Notes: a model not told the origin generated them from the sequence alone. A stretch of DNA of 9,579 bases from a virus (IMGVR_UViG_2690316286_000014), one strand, 5' to 3'; shown: positions 953-9,579, counted from the first letter of the stretch. Numbers and translations: made by a program.

Positions 953-1108
953 TTACTCTCTAGATTCGTAGTCTACGAAGACAGCGACCTCCGTCTGGCC
1001 GGTTCGGATTCGTACCTCACAGAGGTCTTTCCTCGTTACCAGTGCCGTCGCTATGACGGTTAAACAGATGACGATCAGGGCGATTAACATCGCCTTTTGC
1101 TGCTTCAT
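953..1108 (-). CDS. hok: Hok/Gef-family membrane toxin (type I toxin, 51 aa)
   Basis: Translation MKQQKAMLIALIVICLTVIATALVTRKDLCEVRIRTGQTEVAVFVDYESRE has the Hok/Gef hallmarks: a single hydrophobic helix, the conserved TRKDLCEV and RTGQTEVAVF segments, and an acidic C-terminus. ATG at 1108 is preceded by AGGAG at a workable spacing. Confidence 0.85.
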   Translation of the reverse strand: MKQQKAMLIALIVICLTVIATALVTRKDLCEVRIRTGQTEVAVFVDYESRE

Positions 1109-1165
1109 AGCCTGCTTCTCCTTGCCTTTCGGCACGTAAGAGGCTAACCTACATGTGTTCAGCAT
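953..1165 (-). CDS. mok: Mok-like in-frame N-terminally extended reading frame enclosing hok (70 aa)
   Basis: ATG at 1165 is in frame with hok with no intervening stop (MLNTCRLASYVPKGKEKQA then the Hok sequence). This matches the in-frame MokC/HokC arrangement recalled for chromosomal hok loci. Confidence 0.5.
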   Translation of the reverse strand: MLNTCRLASYVPKGKEKQAMKQQKAMLIALIVICLTVIATALVTRKDLCEVRIRTGQTEVAVFVDYESRE

Positions 1166-1284: not shown

Positions 1285-1313
1285 ATTTTAACCAAAGTCT
1301 TTATATCTATAAA
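1285..1313 (-). promoter_or_regulatory. Putative sigma70 promoter for the mok/hok mRNA
   Basis: On the minus strand, -35 TTTATA (1313-1308) and -10 TAAAAT (1290-1285) are separated by 17 nt. The -10 overlaps the stop codon of the upstream peptidase gene; the predicted start near 1278 gives a leader of about 110 nt before the mok ATG. Confidence 0.3.
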
Positions 1314-2191
1314 GAGGCACAATATTACTCGATATATCATCATGTGTGCGCCTTATTCCAAACATTTTGGAAACAAAGCGTTCCCTCACTCCCGACATAT
1401 CCAGTATCTGCTTCCAAGAAGATATATCCAGCAATTCAACTGCACAGGAAAGTAAGCGAGGTTTTTCCTCAGGGATTAACTCATCCCCCATCTCTCCTTT
1501 AATCGTCCCTCTTTTATTTAGATGGATAAATCCCGTTCTCATTTGTTGTGGCGTAATCAGCCCCAAAACCGTAGCACGATAAATACACATGCGAAGACTG
1601 ATTTTCCATCGTTCTTTGAAATTAATTAGTGCATTCCAGTCAAGATGCGATCCTCGCATTTTAGGAAATTCATTAACGAACGAAACTCTAGGTACAAGGA
1701 ATGCGCTCGAAAAATAATCCGCATGATGTTCTGTAATTTTATCCCCTGTTATAATCCCTTCATGCAAAACAAGATGCCCCAGTTCATGACCGAGATCTGA
1801 GCGAAATCGACACACACTCTTTTTCGCGGAATTTCTAATTATCAATGGGCGTTTACTATTAATAGTAAACGCATCAATACGATCATCCACGCCAGATACA
1901 TGAGCAACAACAACCCCAATACTTTCCACGAAATTAACCATTGAAGATATCGGTCCCAGCCCCAACCCCCAATACCTTCTACAGGCCTCGGCAATTCTTT
2001 CAATATCTTCATCGGAGTTCAAAGGTAATCCGGACGTATCAGGAAAGTTCAATTCTGGAAGAACTATTTCTGTTTCCAAACACTTTACAAACTGCTCCAA
2101 AATTTCAGCTCGAGCCAGAATACTATTAGTTAAGGACTGCGTCCTTGATCTCTTGCTTCTGAAATGGCAGTTCTCGCTGTCTAATGGTGAT
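1288..2191 (-). CDS. ImmA/IrrE-family (Peptidase_M78 / COG2856-like) zinc metallopeptidase domain protein; C-terminal 301 codons visible, 5' part hidden by N-run
   Basis: 301 codons are open down to TAA at 1288-1290 in sequence of about 40 percent GC. HELGH sits at 1774-1788 (minus), followed by EHHADYFSSAFLVP, which fits the HEXXH...E..A..FA..LL.P pattern of ImmA/IrrE peptidases. The preceding DIERIAEACRRYWGLGLGPISSMVNFVESIGVVV also looks typical of that domain. About 130 residues C-terminal to the domain have no recognisable motif. Confidence 0.8.
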
Positions 2192-2687
2192 NNNNNNNNN
2201 NNNNNNNNNNNNNNNNNNNNNNNNNNNNNNNNNNNNNNNNNNNNNNNNNNNNNNNNNNNNNNNNNNNNNNNNNNNNNNNNNNNNNNNNNNNNNNNNNNNN
2301 NNNNNNNNNNNNNNNNNNNNNNNNNNNNNNNNNNNNNNNNNNNNNNNNNNNNNNNNNNNNNNNNNNNNNNNNNNNNNNNNNNNNNNNNNNNNNNNNNNNN
2401 NNNNNNNNNNNNNNNNNNNNNNNNNNNNNNNNNNNNNNNNNNNNNNNNNNNNNNNNNNNNNNNNNNNNNNNNNNNNNNNNNNNNNNNNNNNNNNNNNNNN
2501 NNNNNNNNNNNNNNNNNNNNNNNNNNNNNNNNNNNNNNNNNNNNNNNNNNNNNNNNNNNNNNNNNNNNNNNNNNNNNNNNNNNNNNNNNNNNNNNNNNNN
2601 NNNNNNNNNNNNNNNNNNNNNNNNNNNNNNNNNNNNNNNNNNNNNNNNNNNNNNNNNNNNNNNNNNNNNNNNNNNNNNNNNNNNNNN
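2192..2687. other. N-run (496 nt): gap or masked sequence inside the peptidase locus
   Basis: Uninterrupted n characters; length is not a multiple of 3. Confidence 1.
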
Positions 2688-3165
2688 CAAAACCTATCAG
2701 GGCTAAAAGCCACGTTGGAGGTTCGATATCTTCATCTTTTTTATTTGCAGATGGTAATTTTTCAGCCAGAACACGCCATGTAACATCATGTTCAAAATTA
2801 ACATCATCTTCAAAAAGAGATAACTGACGACACTCAACATCATTTTTACATAAGCGATGTTTCTTTTTTGGTGAATCCAGTTTATCGGTCACAAACTGTA
2901 ACGGCACCCTGTTCAGGGTAAACACAAAATTCAGAGGTGTTGAAAGAATCGCCACTCCTTTGAGTTTTTTATGATTTTTTACAAGAAAGTTTTTTATCCA
3001 TCCATAGGCCCTACATCCATTAATCCAGTTATCATCATACTCATGGCGATGGAACCATAATTCGCCAAGTACGTTAGCAAATTGCTGAAGAAGATTGATA
3101 ACAGATTTTTCATCCAAACAAGGATTGATTTCAAAACACGGTTGGAGATTCTGTTCAGACGGCAT
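2688..3165 (-). CDS. AT-rich hypothetical protein, N-terminal 159 codons visible; either the N-terminus of the peptidase protein or a separate upstream gene
   Basis: Open frame of 159 codons in sequence of roughly 30-35 percent GC, where random stops would be frequent. ATG at 3165 is preceded by GAGGG about 7 nt upstream. Translation MPSEQNLQPCFEINPCLDEKSVINLLQQFANVLGELWFHRHEYDDNWINGCRAYGW... has no HTH or other motif I can recognise. It shares a coordinate frame with 1288..2191 (the track's 639-aa ORF), but the N-run makes that uninformative. Confidence 0.6.
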
Positions 3166-3319
3166 AAGGTATCCCTCTCTCTTAAAACTCCGCTCATCTT
3201 TACGCAAAATTTTATTTTTGTAAACCTAATCTTTGGGGTATTTCACGAATTCGTCAACCAGTTGAACGAACTTTAACCACAATACATATTTATCTACATT
3301 GATATGAGTATCGCTAACA

Positions 3320-3550
3320 CTATTGTGGGCATTCAGCTAGTATTACCAAGCCTTCAGGTGCGCGAAGTTGTTCCACACAGTGCAGCAGCGCATCAGTCGC
3401 TTCCTTAAGCGTCACAGTGTCGCCATCACCCAGTCCTGCAATTTTTGCGTGCCTGACAAACGCCGCGCAAAGGTCGTTAAACGCCCCTGCCCGCACATCC
3501 GCCAGGAAAGCATTAGCAGCAGCCAATTCCTGGTAGTCAATCCTGCTCAC
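3320..3550 (-). CDS. Hypothetical protein (76 aa), translationally coupled to the upstream gene
   Basis: GTG at 3550-3548 overlaps the TGA stop of the upstream gene (GTGA) and is preceded by AGGAGG. Translation VSRIDYQELAAANAFLADVRAGAFNDLCAAFVRHAKIAGLGDGDTVTLKEATDALLHCVEQLRAPEGLVILAECPQ. It is the 3' part of track ORF 3320..3619. Confidence 0.55.
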   Translation of the reverse strand: MSRIDYQELAAANAFLADVRAGAFNDLCAAFVRHAKIAGLGDGDTVTLKEATDALLHCVEQLRAPEGLVILAECPQ

Positions 3551-3972
3551 TGCGCCGCCTCCTGAAAATTCCCCTGATAGAAAGCCAGTACACACTGCAT
3601 AACTTCGCTCTTCCTGCACTCGCGACAGATTATGTTCTGTCGTCTGTTGTAACGACGTATTTCGCCGTCTGGTAACGACCAGATAAGGTCCGGATCAACC
3701 ACAGATGTTTTTTTCTTCAGTTTTGCCCTTGATAGTTTTTTGCGGGCGTTTTGCCAGTCCTTACGAGCCTGTTCAGACGGGAATAACCCGTAGCCAGAGT
3801 TGTATACATCCCCACTGGCAACCAGCTCTCTGGCGAGAACGCTTATTAAATATCTTGTCGCCCCGGTTTTAGCTTCCAGTTGTCGTAACGTCTCGCGCCC
3901 ACTCTGGCGTACGAGTTCAACAACCTGCCCCTTAATTTTTTCCCGCTCTTCCTGTGTAAATACTTTTGCCAT
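3547..3972 (-). CDS. Small phage protein with a winged-helix-like N-terminal domain (141 aa); paralog of the gene at 5634..5889
   Basis: ATG at 3972 (MAKVFTQEEREKIKG...). The first 85 residues align with the MAKPFTPEQREELKT... protein at 5889, sharing ELVASGDVYNSGYG.FPSEQA.KDWQNARKKLSR. Codon usage is E. coli-like. Confidence 0.75.
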   Translation of the reverse strand: MAKVFTQEEREKIKGQVVELVRQSGRETLRQLEAKTGATRYLISVLARELVASGDVYNSGYGLFPSEQARKDWQNARKKLSRAKLKKKTSVVDPDLIWSLPDGEIRRYNRRQNIICRECRKSEVMQCVLAFYQGNFQEAAQ

Positions 3973-3987
3973 AAGCGCCCCCGGCAA

Positions 3988-4713
3988 TCACTTTTCCGAC
4001 ACAATACGACCGGAGGAATCGACAATCTGTCGAACAATATCCCGGTGCTTGTTCAGCTCCCGCAACGCGGCGCAGACACGCTCCCACTTCTGGACATGAC
4101 TTTTCGCCCGACGCAGTTCGCGGTTTGCCATATGCAGCGATGGTAAAACCAGGTCATCCGCTTGCGTTTCGGTGAACGATGGCAACGACTGCACAATGTC
4201 CGCCACAGTTTCTGTTTTAATTTCTTCCTGTGTTGCAGCTTCCTGTACCGGTAACGCAACACCTGCTGGCTGAGGAAAGACTTTACCATCCGTTTCCGCT
4301 ATGGATGCGGCTTTCGGCTCTGCCGGTAAATCAGCGCCCGGTATGCAGTACCGAAATTTACCGCCCTGATTCACGCGAATCAGACGCCCTTTGCTGATTG
4401 CCATGGCCAGCGATGAATTCGCCCGGCGGGAGGTAATCCCGAACATCAGTGCCAGCTCATCCGCCGTTTGTGGGCCATGTTGTTCAATCGCCTCAGTCAG
4501 CATTTGCGCTGTCACTTTCGGTACCGGTGACACTGGTTCACTTTCACCAGCCTGAATCAGCCACCACATCGAACCCTTGTTATCCGCTTCACCACGGCGC
4601 TTCAGTTTCCACAGTTCGTTGACCGCATCTTCACGGCTGATTCCAAGGCGGGACGCCACCACATGTGAAGAGGCTCTTTTCAGTGCTTTCAGTGCGTCAA
4701 ATACAGTTTCCAT
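3988..4713 (-). CDS. Phage protein with two winged-helix-like segments (241 aa), function unknown
   Basis: ATG at 4713 ([12 protein letters not shown]...) is preceded by GGAGG 7 nt upstream; the track ORF starts 6 codons earlier at a TTG. Stop at 3988-3990. Confidence 0.75.
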
Positions 4714-4734
4714 TAAAACATCCTCCAACAAAAA

Positions 4735-5350
4735 TTACTTCACAACTCCCGGAAAGCTGACATTTGAACGCCAGCTATCCCAGTTAAACGTCACCCACCG
4801 ACAACCGTTCATGGTCATGCGGTCCATAATNNNNNNNNNNNNNNNNNNNNNNNNNNNNNNNNNNNNNNNNNNNNNNNNNNNNNNNNNNNNNNNNNNNNNN
4901 NNNNNNNNNNNNNNNNNNNNNNNNNNNNNNNNNNNNNNNNNNNNNNNNNNNNNNNNNNNNNNNNNNNNNNNNNNNNNNNNNNNNNNNNNNNNNNNNNNNN
5001 NNNNNNNNNNNNNNNNNNNNNNNNNNNNNNNNNNNNNNNNNNNNNNNNNNNNNNNNNNNNNNNNNNNNNNNNNNNNNNNNNNNNNNNNNNNNNNNNNNNN
5101 NNNNNNNNNNNNNNNNNNNNNNNNNNNNNNNNNNNNNNNNNNNNNNNNNNNNNNNNNNNNNNNNNNNNNNNNNNNNNNNNNNNNNNNNNNNNNNNNNNNN
5201 NNNNNNNNNNNNNNNNNNNNNNNNNNNNNNNNNNNNNNNNNNNNNNNNNNNNNNNNNNNNNNNNNNNNNNNNNNNNNNNNNGGATTTGGCCTGGCTCAGC
5301 GCGTATTTTTGCCCGTCGTTCTGCACCTGATAATTCGCAAACGAGCATTT
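4735..5350 (-). CDS. Second, diverged DnaC-like helicase-loader copy (C-terminal 31 codons and a 23-codon internal island visible; remainder is N)
   Basis: 4735-4830 translates to IMDRMTMNGCRWVTFNWDSWRSNVSFPGVVK then stop, against VMDRMVMNGGRWVNFNWESWRPNVSHSRVVK at the end of the 5904..6650 protein. The island 5282-5350 translates to KCSFANYQVQNDGQKYALSQAKS against KCSFANYRAQNDGQRHALSQAKS. The two visible parts are not in the same coordinate frame across the 451-nt N-run, so the gene may be disrupted or the N-run length may not be exact. Confidence 0.5.
4831..5281. other. N-run (451 nt): gap or masked sequence
   Basis: Uninterrupted n characters. Confidence 1.
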
Positions 5351-5633
5351 NNNNNNNNNNNNNNNNNNNNNNNNNNNNNNNNNNNNNNNNNNNNNNNNNN
5401 NNNNNNNNNNNNNNNNNNNNNNNNNNNNNNNNNNNNNNNNNNNNNNNNNNNNNNNNNNNNNNNNNNNNNNNNNNNNNNNNNNNNNNNNNNNNNNNNNNNN
5501 NNNNNNNNNNNNNNNNNNNNNNNNNNNNNNNNNNNNNNNNNNNNNNNNNNNNNNNNNNNNNNNNNNNNNNNNNNNNNNNNNNNNNNNNNNNNNNNNNNNN
5601 NNNNNNNNNNNNNNNNNNNNNNNNNNNNNNNNN
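5351..5633. other. N-run (283 nt): gap or masked sequence
   Basis: Uninterrupted n characters. Confidence 1.
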
Positions 5634-5889
5634 TCACCTTTACCCTCGATAGCTTTTTGCGGGCGTTTTGCCAGTCTTTATGAGCCTGTTCAGAGGGAAA
5701 TACCCCGTAGCCAGAATTATATACATCACCACTTGCGACCAGTTCCATGCATAAGCGACCGACAGACGCACGACTGATACCTGTTTCATCTGACAACTGC
5801 CGAATCGTGACCCGACCGTCCTGATGCACGAGTTCCACAATTCGCGTCTTCAGTTCTTCCCGCTGTTCGGGAGTAAAAGGTTTCGCCAT
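5634..5889 (-). CDS. Small phage protein with a winged-helix-like domain; N-terminal 85 codons visible, 3' end in N-run
   Basis: ATG at 5889 is preceded by AGGAGG. Translation MAKPFTPEQREELKTRIVELVHQDGRVTIRQLSDETGISRASVGRLCMELVASGDVYNSGYGVFPSEQAHKDWQNARKKLSRVKV is paralogous to the 3547..3972 product. Confidence 0.7.
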
Positions 5890-7856: not shown

Positions 7857-7868
7857 GGAAACTTTTGC

Positions 7869-8290
7869 TTAATGAACAATGACAGAATCGTCGGAAGACC
7901 CGCCGCCGCTGAAATGCGCTTTCCGGTAAACGGCCTGGACTGCATCATCATGCGCATCAATTGCCGTACTCAACGCTTCCTGCGCCGCCAGTAATGCACG
8001 GCGTTCCAGGGTATCGAAGATGCAGAGTCGGTGACGCAGCTCGCGCGGAAGAATTGCCAGAACCGCAGGGATCAGTTTCTGAATTTTTTCCCTTTGCGCT
8101 TTCGTTTCACCTTTCAACCAACGGTGATAGATATTCTGCTGATTGTTCCAGTCCTTGCCTGGTACAAGGGGCAATTCGCCGCCCCCCTGGCGCAGATATT
8201 CTTCAGTAATTGCGTTAGCGACCCACGCCTGCCCTTTTTCGGCTGCCAGGGCAACAGCACTGATTCGATGTGCTCATGCCTGATTTTCAT
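7869..8290 (-). CDS. YdaT/CII-like prophage regulator with an apparent frameshift near 8252-8256 (possible pseudogene or sequencing error)
   Basis: ATG at 8290-8288 overlaps the Cro-like stop (ATGA) and reads MKIRHEHIESVLL before drifting into rare codons and a stop. The coding-like frame with E. coli codon usage (...ALAAEKGQAWVANAITEEYLRQGGGELPLVPGKDWNNQQ...SDDSVIVH) is offset by one and has no standard start before the TTG at 8174 (track ORF 7869..8174). One extra base in the + strand run GCAACAG would join the two into about 140 aa, the size I recall for YdaT. Confidence 0.6.
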
Positions 8291-8529
8291 GAATCAACCG
8301 CTCCTATGCTGTTTTCGCTATGCTTACCGTCTGGGGGGAATACATCGTCAAGTCCACAATGAGCGCCAAGCCGATTAAGGGTAGAAACAATTTTTCTGCA
8401 CTCCTCTAGTCCAGGGGTACGAAAATTTGCTTCGTAATTTGCCAGTCGGCTTTGTATCCACCCTAACTGAACAGCAAGTTGTCTTTGAGACAGCCCAAGC
8501 TGTTTTCGATATGTTGAAATTTTGTTCAT
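8287..8529 (-). CDS. Cro-like XRE-family helix-turn-helix regulator (80 aa)
   Basis: ATG at 8529 with GGAGG 5 nt upstream. HTH segment LGLSQRQLAVQLGWIQSRLANYE. Divergent from the repressor gene. Confidence 0.85.
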   Translation of the reverse strand: MNKISTYRKQLGLSQRQLAVQLGWIQSRLANYEANFRTPGLEECRKIVSTLNRLGAHCGLDDVFPPDGKHSENSIGAVDS

Positions 8530-8625
8530 TGAAAACCTCCGATGACAATTTTAAACACACCTTGTGTTATATAGCCAAGCTGTTTTGTGTTTTATGTAAA
8601 TCACGATTCGTGATACAAGGATGCA
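8530..8625. promoter_or_regulatory. Divergent promoter/operator region of the immunity switch
   Basis: 96-bp intergenic region between divergent HTH genes. Contains the 7-1-7 inverted repeat ATCACGAtTCGTGAT (8600-8614), AACAC-N5-GTGTT (8554-8568) and TTGTGTT twice (8562-8568, 8585-8591). A minus-strand promoter candidate is -35 TTGGCT (8578-8573) with -10 TAAAAT (8553-8548). Confidence 0.55.
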
Positions 8626-9045
8626 ATGGAAAAAGAAAACGAAAAAATTGCCGCTAGTAGGCTCAATGACAAAATTGCAATGCGTCTTAAAGAGCGCAGG
8701 CAGAAGCTTGGTTTATCTCAAGGAAAACTTGCTGAAATCTGCGGATGGACGCAATCGCGTATAGGTAACTATGAGGCGGGCAGCAGAAATGTTGGAGTAC
8801 ATGACGCTGTCGTATTGGGAAAGGCACTTGGCATATCTCCTCCTGAGCTCCTCTTTGGAGAACAGGAATCTTCTGAATTGTGGTTAAATGAATCCCAACG
8901 AAAACTTCTTGAGTTGTTTAACCAGCTACCGGGCTCAGAACAACAACGAATGATTGAGCTATTTGAAGTCCGGCTAAAAGAAATCGATGAGTATGTAGAA
9001 AAATATTTGAGAGGCAGGATTAAAGATAATCCCCCACCGGAATAA
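8626..9045 (+). CDS. CI/DicA-like XRE-family HTH prophage repressor (139 aa), no LexA-like autocleavage domain
   Basis: HTH segment LGLSQGKLAEICGWTQSRIGNYEAG. The C-terminal LLELFNQLPGSEQQ resembles the DicA C-terminus as recalled. ATG at 8626 with AAGGA upstream; stop TAA at 9043-9045. Confidence 0.9.
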   Translation: MEKENEKIAASRLNDKIAMRLKERRQKLGLSQGKLAEICGWTQSRIGNYEAGSRNVGVHDAVVLGKALGISPPELLFGEQESSELWLNESQRKLLELFNQLPGSEQQRMIELFEVRLKEIDEYVEKYLRGRIKDNPPPE

Positions 9046-9075
9046 TGATCTTGCTATCACAGTAATATGCCAATC

Positions 9076-9099
9076 AGCCCGCTATCAGCGGGCTTTTTT
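9076..9099 (+). terminator. Rho-independent terminator downstream of the repressor gene
   Basis: 8-bp stem AGCCCGCT/AGCGGGCT (9076-9083 with 9087-9094), loop ATC, followed by TTTTT (9095-9099). Confidence 0.7.
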
Positions 9100-9141
9100 G
9101 TAGCATCATCATATGACACTCACCATAAAACACATTGCGTG

Positions 9142-9170
9142 TTGACACAAGAAAACAAATTGTGTTTAAT
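9142..9170 (+). promoter_or_regulatory. Sigma70 promoter (PL-like) for the rightward small-gene operon
   Basis: -35 TTGACA (9142-9147), 17-nt spacer, -10 TTTAAT (9165-9170). The spacer carries ACAA...TTGT / TTGTGTT elements resembling those in the 8530-8625 operator region. Confidence 0.55.
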
Positions 9171-9350
9171 AAGCATATCCAAACAACGCCCCACCAGAGA
9201 ACGGCAGGACAATACCTCGAGTTATCCAGTCACTGAACAGGGCTAAGTAGCCAGCCTGAGGCATACGAACATGACGGCAGTTGTTGATTGATACAAAGCG
9301 CAGTAGATAAAACGTTCCGCCACCCGGCGTTAAGGGGAAATGGGGTCAAC

Positions 9351-9506
9351 ATGAATACTATCGATCTTGGCAACAACGAATCTCTGGTATGTGGCGTGTT
9401 TCCCAATCAAGACGGCACATTCACCGCCATGACGTATACCAAAAGCAAAACGTTTAAAACCGAAGCTGGCGCACGTCGTTGGTTGGGAAGACATTCAGGT
9501 GAGTAA
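9351..9506 (+). CDS. Small phage protein (51 aa), first gene downstream of the PL-like promoter
   Basis: ATG at 9351 (MNTIDLGNNESLVCGVFPNQDGTFTAMTYTKSKTFKTEAGARRWLGRHSGE); internal start within track ORF 9288..9506. Its position after the repressor resembles the small ydaF/ydaG-type genes of Rac-like prophages. No motif recognised. Confidence 0.45.
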   Translation: MNTIDLGNNESLVCGVFPNQDGTFTAMTYTKSKTFKTEAGARRWLGRHSGE

Positions 9507-9579
9507 AATGAACGAGACAGAATTAAAACACGTTATCGCTCTACTCCTAAATAGCTGCGCGGAATAGTAGATCACTTTG

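Follow-up and report, generated by a model that had tools for sequence, protein, structure and literature searches.

Putative repressor operators at the divergent immunity promoters and at the PL-like promoter of a lambdoid Escherichia coli prophage

Described immunity switches and the prophage locus

In phage lambda, a tripartite OR with a centre spacing of 23-24 bp lies at the divergent promoters PR and PRM, and its weak middle site, measured from the start of the repressor gene, is located at about -42. PL, which is transcribed in the direction of the repressor gene, carries a further operator set. According to the classical picture of lambda, 434 and P22, cI, cro and the operators co-vary.

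Several lambdoid prophages carry switches that are built around shorter repressors. In the Qin prophage of strain K-12, a Cro-like gene and a divergent gene for a short HTH repressor are accompanied by a terminator and the repressed ydfA-ydfB promoter. Operator dyads are located between the divergent genes as well as on the downstream promoter (PMC10448788). DicA, the non-cleavable repressor of Qin, is counteracted by the antirepressor Rem (PMC10448788), and together with DicC and dicBp it provides an experimental precedent for the control of OR and OL by a short repressor (PMC10448788, PMC3441716). Short non-cleavable lambdoid repressors are also encoded by the Salmonella prophages Gifsy-1, -2 and -3, where GfoR, GtgR and GfhR are inactivated by small antirepressors; the family of the Gifsy repressors includes DicA and RacR (PMC3121763).

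The prophage CP-933P combines a divergent repressor gene, whose product PaaR2 is reported to form higher-order oligomers, with an operon coding for YdaS (Cro) and YdaT (CII). Its OR sites lie over PRM and PR and a further set is located at PL, both PaaR2 and YdaS bind and footprint OR, and the PL promoter is regulated (PMC8630535). Leaderless repressor mRNAs have been shown for lambda cI and for paaR2 of CP-933P (PMC8630535). VT1-Sakai (Stx1) and mEp213 carry the operator word nnCAC-N5-GTGnn at OR, and the GenBank record of VT1-Sakai already annotates the putative OR operators ACACACAATTTGTGATT, AACCTCAATTCGTGTAC and AATCACGTTGCGTGTTA. OR and OL of mEp213 comprise three dyads each, which have a spacing of 22-24 bp. 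The CI proteins of these two phages comprise about 213 aa, and that of mEp213 is described in RefSeq as a member of the LexA family.

Here, we analysed a stretch of 9,579 nucleotides (IMGVR_UViG_2690316286_000014), referred to as the window, which is part of a lambdoid E. coli prophage that lies only partly inside it. A preliminary description had proposed a layout in which one repressor controls both an OR-like and an OL-like operator set. At the level of sequence, this layout is supported by the recurring dyad, its register with the promoters, the footprint among close relatives, the sites of more distant phages and the exchange of a cassette in pPE4.

For the bases 8200-9579, matches that cover at least 80% of the length, with identities of up to 99.6%, are present in at least 153 complete E. 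coli genomes; strains of O121 and O55:H7 are among the listed matches. Two divergent HTH_3 genes, coding for the repressor and a Cro-like protein, are separated by a gap of 96 bp (Table 1). The repressor consists of an N-terminal HTH_3 domain and, at its C-terminus, a short helical domain of the DicA/Gifsy type. Only HTH families were matched in Pfam by its 139 aa, and an S24/LexA-type peptidase domain is absent. BLASTP revealed 29% identity to K-12 DicA over residues 14-135 (E=2e-15), a range that includes the C-terminal domain, and the matches of a PDB sequence search were generic HTH relatives only. With its Xre-type N-terminal HTH, a length within the range of about 130-160 aa and no autopeptidase domain, the protein shows the features of the DicA/Gifsy/RacR family and can, by analogy, be placed with DicA and the Gifsy repressors. 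The Cro-like protein is homologous to Cro of mEp213 and VT1-Sakai (52-57% identity) and is encoded by the first gene of a rightward-type operon, followed by a YdaT-family gene, a DUF1376 replication-type gene and a DnaC-like gene. Compared to a 99.6%-identical E. coli O121 locus, a T-run near 8253 lacks 1 nt and ydaT is split as a result; either the gene is a pseudogene or the homopolymer was misread in sequencing.

Table 1 Features of the immunity region of the window, including predicted promoters and putative operators
Feature	Position	Strand	Characteristics
ydaT (CII position), after cro	7869-8290	-	Pfam YdaT_toxin
Cro-like HTH protein (YdaS/DicC position), 80 aa	8287-8529	-	Pfam HTH_3 6.7e-10
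PR-like promoter of cro, ydaT and replication genes	8550-8578	-	TTGGCT (8578-8573), N17, TTTAAA (8555-8550)
OR1	8554-8568		AACACaccttGTGTT; exact dyad in spacer and -10 edge of the Cro-side promoter
OR2	8577-8591		AAGCTgttttGTGTT; half-conserved dyad, 2-bp overlap with Cro-side -35
OR3	8600-8614		ATCACgattcGTGAT; exact dyad (7-1-7 palindrome of the preliminary description) in spacer and extended -10 of the repressor promoter
Predicted extended -10 of the PRM-like promoter, TGaTACAAG	8611-8619	+	OR3 half GTGAT followed by ACAAG
Prophage repressor, 139 aa	8626-9045	+	Pfam HTH_3 4.6e-13
Intrinsic terminator of the repressor transcript	9076-9100	+	8-bp stem, 6 GC pairs, T-run
OL2	9129-9143		AACACattgcGTGTT; exact dyad, last TT opens -35 TTGACA
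PL-like (dicBp-like) promoter, predicted	9142-9170	+	TTGACA-N17-TTTAAT; drives ydfA-like early-left operon
OL1	9152-9166		AAAACaaattGTGTT; one mismatch, last TT opens -10 TTTAAT
DUF1391/YdfA homologue, first gene of the PL-like operon	9351-9506	+	Pfam DUF1391 5.8e-29

The order of these elements is identical to that in Qin: the YdfA-like gene occupies the position of ydfA downstream of dicA, and the PL-like promoter corresponds in position to dicBp. The operators themselves differ, as those of Qin are of the TTAGTnAnnnCTAA type and those of the window of the type AWCAC-N5-GTGWT, and there is no detectable similarity between DicC and the 80-aa Cro-like protein. The gene order also corresponds to that of ydaS, paaR2 and PL in CP-933P, which provides a further experimental precedent for such control (PMC8630535), and the presence of a YdaT-family gene after cro is shared with this prophage as well. 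However, CP-933P has four 18-bp repeats with the half-site GTTTAGTAA, compared to three 15-bp OR dyads in the window, and it carries a toxin-antitoxin pair behind the repressor gene, whereas none follows the repressor gene of the window, where ydaT is moreover frameshifted. With lambda, the locus shares the tripartite OR and its spacing, the divergent promoters, the weak middle site and the second operator set on a promoter that points in the direction of the repressor gene. Lambda differs in its 17-bp sites of unrelated sequence, its RecA-cleavable CI, its three OL sites and its distance of 2.4 kb between OR and OL, which is about 0.6 kb in the window. VT1-Sakai and mEp213 have the same operator word at OR, but the window has two OL dyads instead of the three of mEp213, and its repressor has the short DicA-type C-terminal domain instead of a long CI. 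With HTH domains that are 49-58% identical (53-58% for mEp213 CI and 49-51% for VT1-Sakai CI) and with different outer operator bases, the same immunity cannot be assumed for the window and these two phages.

Dyads at the divergent and the PL-like promoters

The preliminary description had listed the words TTGTGTT and ACAA...TTGT as elements common to both regulatory regions. TTGTGTT is present twice in the intergenic region (8562-8568 and 8585-8591) and once more at 9160-9166, but the element that is really shared is a 15-bp dyad, AWCAC-N5-GTGWT. More exactly, this unit reads AWCACR-N3-YGTGWT and is a 6-3-6 arrangement, since relatives have a purine after CAC and a pyrimidine before GTG. TTGTGTT consists of the right half-site and two spacer bases; with three further copies elsewhere and a weak enrichment in the window (6 copies compared to 1.8 expected), it was rejected as an operator unit. 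The ACAA...TTGT words are not meaningful either, as ACAA at 8545-8548 falls into a segment (8541-8546) that varies freely among relatives.

Exact copies of the dyad occur three times in the 9.6-kb window, compared to 0.03 expected, and none of 200 shuffles reached this number. All three (OR1, OR3 and OL2) fall into the two regulatory regions. If up to one mismatch is allowed, the window contains five dyads (0.97 expected), of which four are regulatory; the remaining one, at 3135-3149 within a Peptidase_M78 open reading frame, has one mismatch and was taken as a chance occurrence, about one such match being expected. The core CAC-N5-GTG alone is found five times (1.8 expected). The centres of the sites at 8561, 8584 and 8607 (OR) and at 9136 and 9159 (OL) follow each other in steps of 23 bp in both regions. 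OR2 has only one good half-site, and its centre lies at -42 relative to the repressor ATG. OR3 is a perfect copy of the dyad with T at position 2. It comprises the 7-1-7 palindrome ATCACGATTCGTGAT that had been reported at the repressor ribosome-binding site; the repeat is indeed present there, with distances of 3 nt from its end to AAGGA (8618-8622) and of 11 nt to the ATG at 8626, but it is a member of the dyad series and not a separate element.

All five sites are aligned with predicted promoters. The AACAC-N5-GTGTT dyad OR1 fills the spacer of the Cro-side promoter, as had been proposed, and overlaps its -10 by 2 nt. The register of OR2 and OR1 on this minus-strand promoter is exactly that of OL2 and OL1 on the PL-like promoter. 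The assignment of the Cro-side -35 hexamer, TTGGCT in the window, is supported by most close relatives, in which this position reads TTGACC. In Chris1 and mEp213 the promoter reads TTGACT-N17-TTTAAT in identical register. The TTGACA-N17-TTTAAT promoter that had been predicted on the plus strand was confirmed as a sequence match, with its hexamers at 9142-9147 and 9165-9170. While the preliminary description had recognised the OL region, it had overlooked the best OL site, OL2, on the -35. No match was found at 9106-9120, where a third OL site would lie one 23-bp step upstream of OL2, and unpaired single half-sites are located at 9056-9060 and 9115-9119. The terminator of the repressor transcript lies upstream of the PL-like promoter and is found in the same place in all relatives.

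A consensus promoter scan of the window called neither early promoter and returned two unrelated weak matches on the minus strand only. This is explained by the -10 hexamers TTTAAT and TTTAAA, which do not have the usually essential A at position 2. The missing A in both early promoters counts against the reading of the locus as a lambda-like switch, as do the half-site weakness of OR2 and the presence of two OL sites instead of three.

The predicted extended -10 of the repressor promoter, TGaTACAAG, lies 6 nt before the ATG, which suggests that the repressor mRNA is probably leaderless and would place OR3 at -19. The pattern TGnTAnnnn followed by 6-7 nt and ATG recurs in the IMG/VR locus L072, Chris1, pPE4, VT1-Sakai and Photorhabdus. 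The Shine-Dalgarno sequence AAGGA before the ATG, on the other hand, argues that at least some repressor transcripts have a leader. An alternative repressor promoter, ATGACA(8542)-N17-TGTTAT, was rejected, as its -35 is not conserved. Between the predicted -10 and the actual start codon, an out-of-frame ATG 5 nt upstream of that codon opens a 47-aa reading frame (8621-8764, plus strand) that overlaps the repressor gene and is probably meaningless.

Conservation among relatives and the pPE4 cassette

A scan of genome contigs for relatives of the locus yielded five loci only, and variants for the footprint were taken from viral contigs instead. The scan of IMG/VR viral contigs revealed 80 loci with repressors that are 83-100% identical. 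Among the 36 unique OR variants of these loci, none of the 25 positions of the five well-formed OR half-sites varied, whereas variation was found at 36 of the remaining 71 positions of the intergenic region (Fisher p=7e-7). At the centres of the OR dyads, the bases vary freely. Of the two halves of OR2, only the left one is variable; the right one, GTGTT, is the same in all variants. A corresponding pattern was observed at OL (51 variants), where the two halves of OL2, the GTGTT of OL1 and the promoter hexamers TTGACA and TTTAAT hardly ever change, in contrast to the dyad centres and the inter-site bases, which are variable. The left half of OL1, AAAAC, is nearly invariant, and GTG-TTTAAT, which is also seen as -10 in relatives, is invariant. 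In the class of 84% identical repressors, the DNA-binding domain is nearly unchanged and the C-terminal domain has diverged; the operators are kept. About 520-545 bp past the repressor start, the loci L072-L094 (IMG/VR, 83-84% class) have a hypervariable OL1 left half next to a conserved CGTGTTTAAT; their -35 and -10 are 18 bp apart and OL1 is a half-site there.

More distant phages extend this pattern. The repressors of Citrobacter phage Chris1, pPE4, Aeromonas phage pAEv1818 and Photorhabdus prophages are 63-65%, 61-62.5%, 58-60% and 45% identical to that of the window, respectively. Together with mEp213 and VT1-Sakai, all of them have nnCAC-N5-GTGnn dyads at OR, with two to three exact-core sites that are roughly 23-25 bp apart or multiples thereof. 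The OR2 position is occupied by a full or a half site, and in every relative a site equivalent to OR3 adjoins the start of the repressor gene. PL was examined in five relatives; in each, TTGAC[AT] and the -10 are separated by 17 bp and both are joined to dyads. The fusion with the -35 reads GTGTT/GAC in four of the five and GAGTT/GAC in pPE4. The stretches examined for VT1-Sakai and Photorhabdus contained no PL-side dyads. Each phage uses one dialect of outer bases at OR and OL, such as CTCAC/GTGAG in pPE4 and GACAC/GTGTC in pAEv1818. In phages with repressors of 36-46% identity (SEN34, Kp4865-4), the dyad motif is absent and other sequences are located at these positions.

The comparison with pPE4 is particularly informative. 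This phage is about 100% identical to the window left of 8531, including cro and ydaT, and again right of approximately 9190, while only about 55-60% of the bases between 8532 and 9175 are identical. This indicates that OR, the repressor gene, the terminator and OL/PL were exchanged as one block, which is expected if the repressor owns both operator sets. One end of the exchangeable cassette lies directly after the start codon of cro, the other at the start of PL. As the Cro proteins of pPE4 and the window are 100% identical, one Cro accompanies two cassettes whose outer operator bases differ (AACAC/GTGTT and CTCAC/GTGAG), and it is therefore uncertain whether Cro reads these exact sites. In a comparison with window positions 7860-9350, the joints of the mosaic coincide exactly with the start codon of cro and the start of PL. 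The pPE4 record (PP818812, 'Actinobacillus phage vB_Apl-pPE4'; locus L004) has E. coli prophage flanks, which is odd for an assignment to Actinobacillus.

The identical Cro next to two different repressor/operator cassettes is a mildly unusual point of the locus. It may be speculated, with considerable doubt, that cro lies outside the immunity determinant in this phage group and that the shared Cro reads only the invariant CAC-N5-GTG core, which a whole super-family of hetero-immune repressors would have in common, while each repressor also reads the outer bases. If true, this would represent a 'universal' lytic repressor (Cro) that is paired with many specific lysogenic repressors, unlike the situation in lambda, 434 and P22.

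Proposed mechanism and alternative explanations

Divergent HTH genes, operators on predicted divergent promoters and a second set on a PL-like promoter are the features of a lambdoid CI/Cro switch. We infer that the locus is very probably an E. coli immunity switch of the Qin/Rac/CP-933P-like lambdoid type, in which the five dyads are putative operators of the 139-aa repressor and act by a lambda-like mechanism. The repressor and the Cro-like protein both carry the motif GLSQ..LA...GW.QSR[IL].NYE and are thus both expected to read the CAC/GTG core. By this shared recognition helix, the five dyads are probably operators of the 80-aa protein as well.

In the lysogen, repressor dimers on OR1 and OR2 and on OL2 and OL1 would exclude RNA polymerase from both early promoters, with the weak OR2 probably being filled cooperatively. 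Repressor bound to OR2 may stimulate its own promoter, which is probably leaderless. Binding to OR3 would lead to negative autoregulation of the repressor, and the same site is a likely first target of Cro. Since the repressor does not have an autocleavage domain, induction is expected to proceed via an antirepressor, similar to DicA and the Gifsy repressors. In a further difference from Qin, a Rem homologue was not seen in the window, and Gifsy-type antirepressors were not recognised there either. The open reading frame 563-757 was considered as a Rem-like candidate and rejected, as it shows no similarity to Rem and no Pfam match.

Other explanations for the repeats were weighed against this model. 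The AACAC-N5-GTGTT dyads could be the repressor sites while the palindrome ATCACGAtTCGTGAT constitutes a distinct site, by which another protein (Cro-like or YdaT/CII-like) controls repressor synthesis. This would account for the T at half-site position 2 of OR3, which distinguishes it from OR1, OL2 and OL1 and is kept in 36 of 36 variants, and for the fact that ATCAC-type halves are missing from the OL set of the window. We nevertheless regard a second operator class as unlikely: OR3 agrees with the other sites in its CAC-N5-GTG core and its length and is in exact 23-bp phase with OR1 and OR2, and relatives mix A and T at position 2 within one set, also on PL, where mEp213 has the OL2 ATCAC..GTGTT and pAEv1818 the OL2 ATCAC..GTGAT on its -35. 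The YdaT site of CP-933P is moreover quite different (TTGATT-N6-AATCAA; PMC9986795). Should Cro prefer OR3 in quantitative terms, this would be compatible with the main model and would not make OR3 a separate class.

It is very unlikely that the palindrome acts as an RNA hairpin in the 5' leader of the repressor mRNA and modulates the access of ribosomes to AAGGA and the ATG. The predicted fold is weak (-5.8 kcal/mol, z = -0.96, with 34 of 200 shuffles being as good), and the arms consist of the same conserved half-site words as OR1 and OL2, which cannot be part of the repressor RNA. The position 3 nt upstream of the Shine-Dalgarno-like AAGGA would suit such a hairpin, and any upstream (PRE-like) promoter would transcribe the palindrome; a leaderless PRM transcript, however, would exclude it. 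The modest enrichment of TTGTGTT, with its copies outside the region, and that of the CAC-N5-GTG core would also fit repeats that arose by chance or from the composition of AT-rich intergenic DNA and have no function. Given the excess of the full dyad, the significance of the OR footprint and the conservation of the sites across genera in a fixed register with promoters, we consider such a chance origin extremely unlikely.

As a putative set of repressor operators, the dyads provide a precise map of five sites, three promoters and a predicted leaderless start for an immunity type that is present in at least 153 complete E. coli genomes. The CAC-N5-GTG specificity is common to LexA-type CI proteins (mEp213, VT1-Sakai) and to short DicA-type repressors, which points to domain shuffling. 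The locus represents an ordinary, well-understood switch design with a slightly different site sequence and adds nothing conceptually new to the lambda paradigm.

Some further observations concern the remainder of the window. A Hok/Gef-family toxin gene is located at 953-1165 (minus strand), comparable to Qin near rem/hokD. The C-terminal half of a 639-aa open reading frame at 1288-3207 (minus strand), which is N-masked in its middle, is a Peptidase_M78/IrrE-type HExxH metalloprotease domain. Two paralogous DUF977 genes (3547-3987 and 5296-5889, minus strand) and a DUF1627 gene (3988-4731) are separated by N-masked blocks, and it looks as if the region that follows the replication genes had been partly duplicated.
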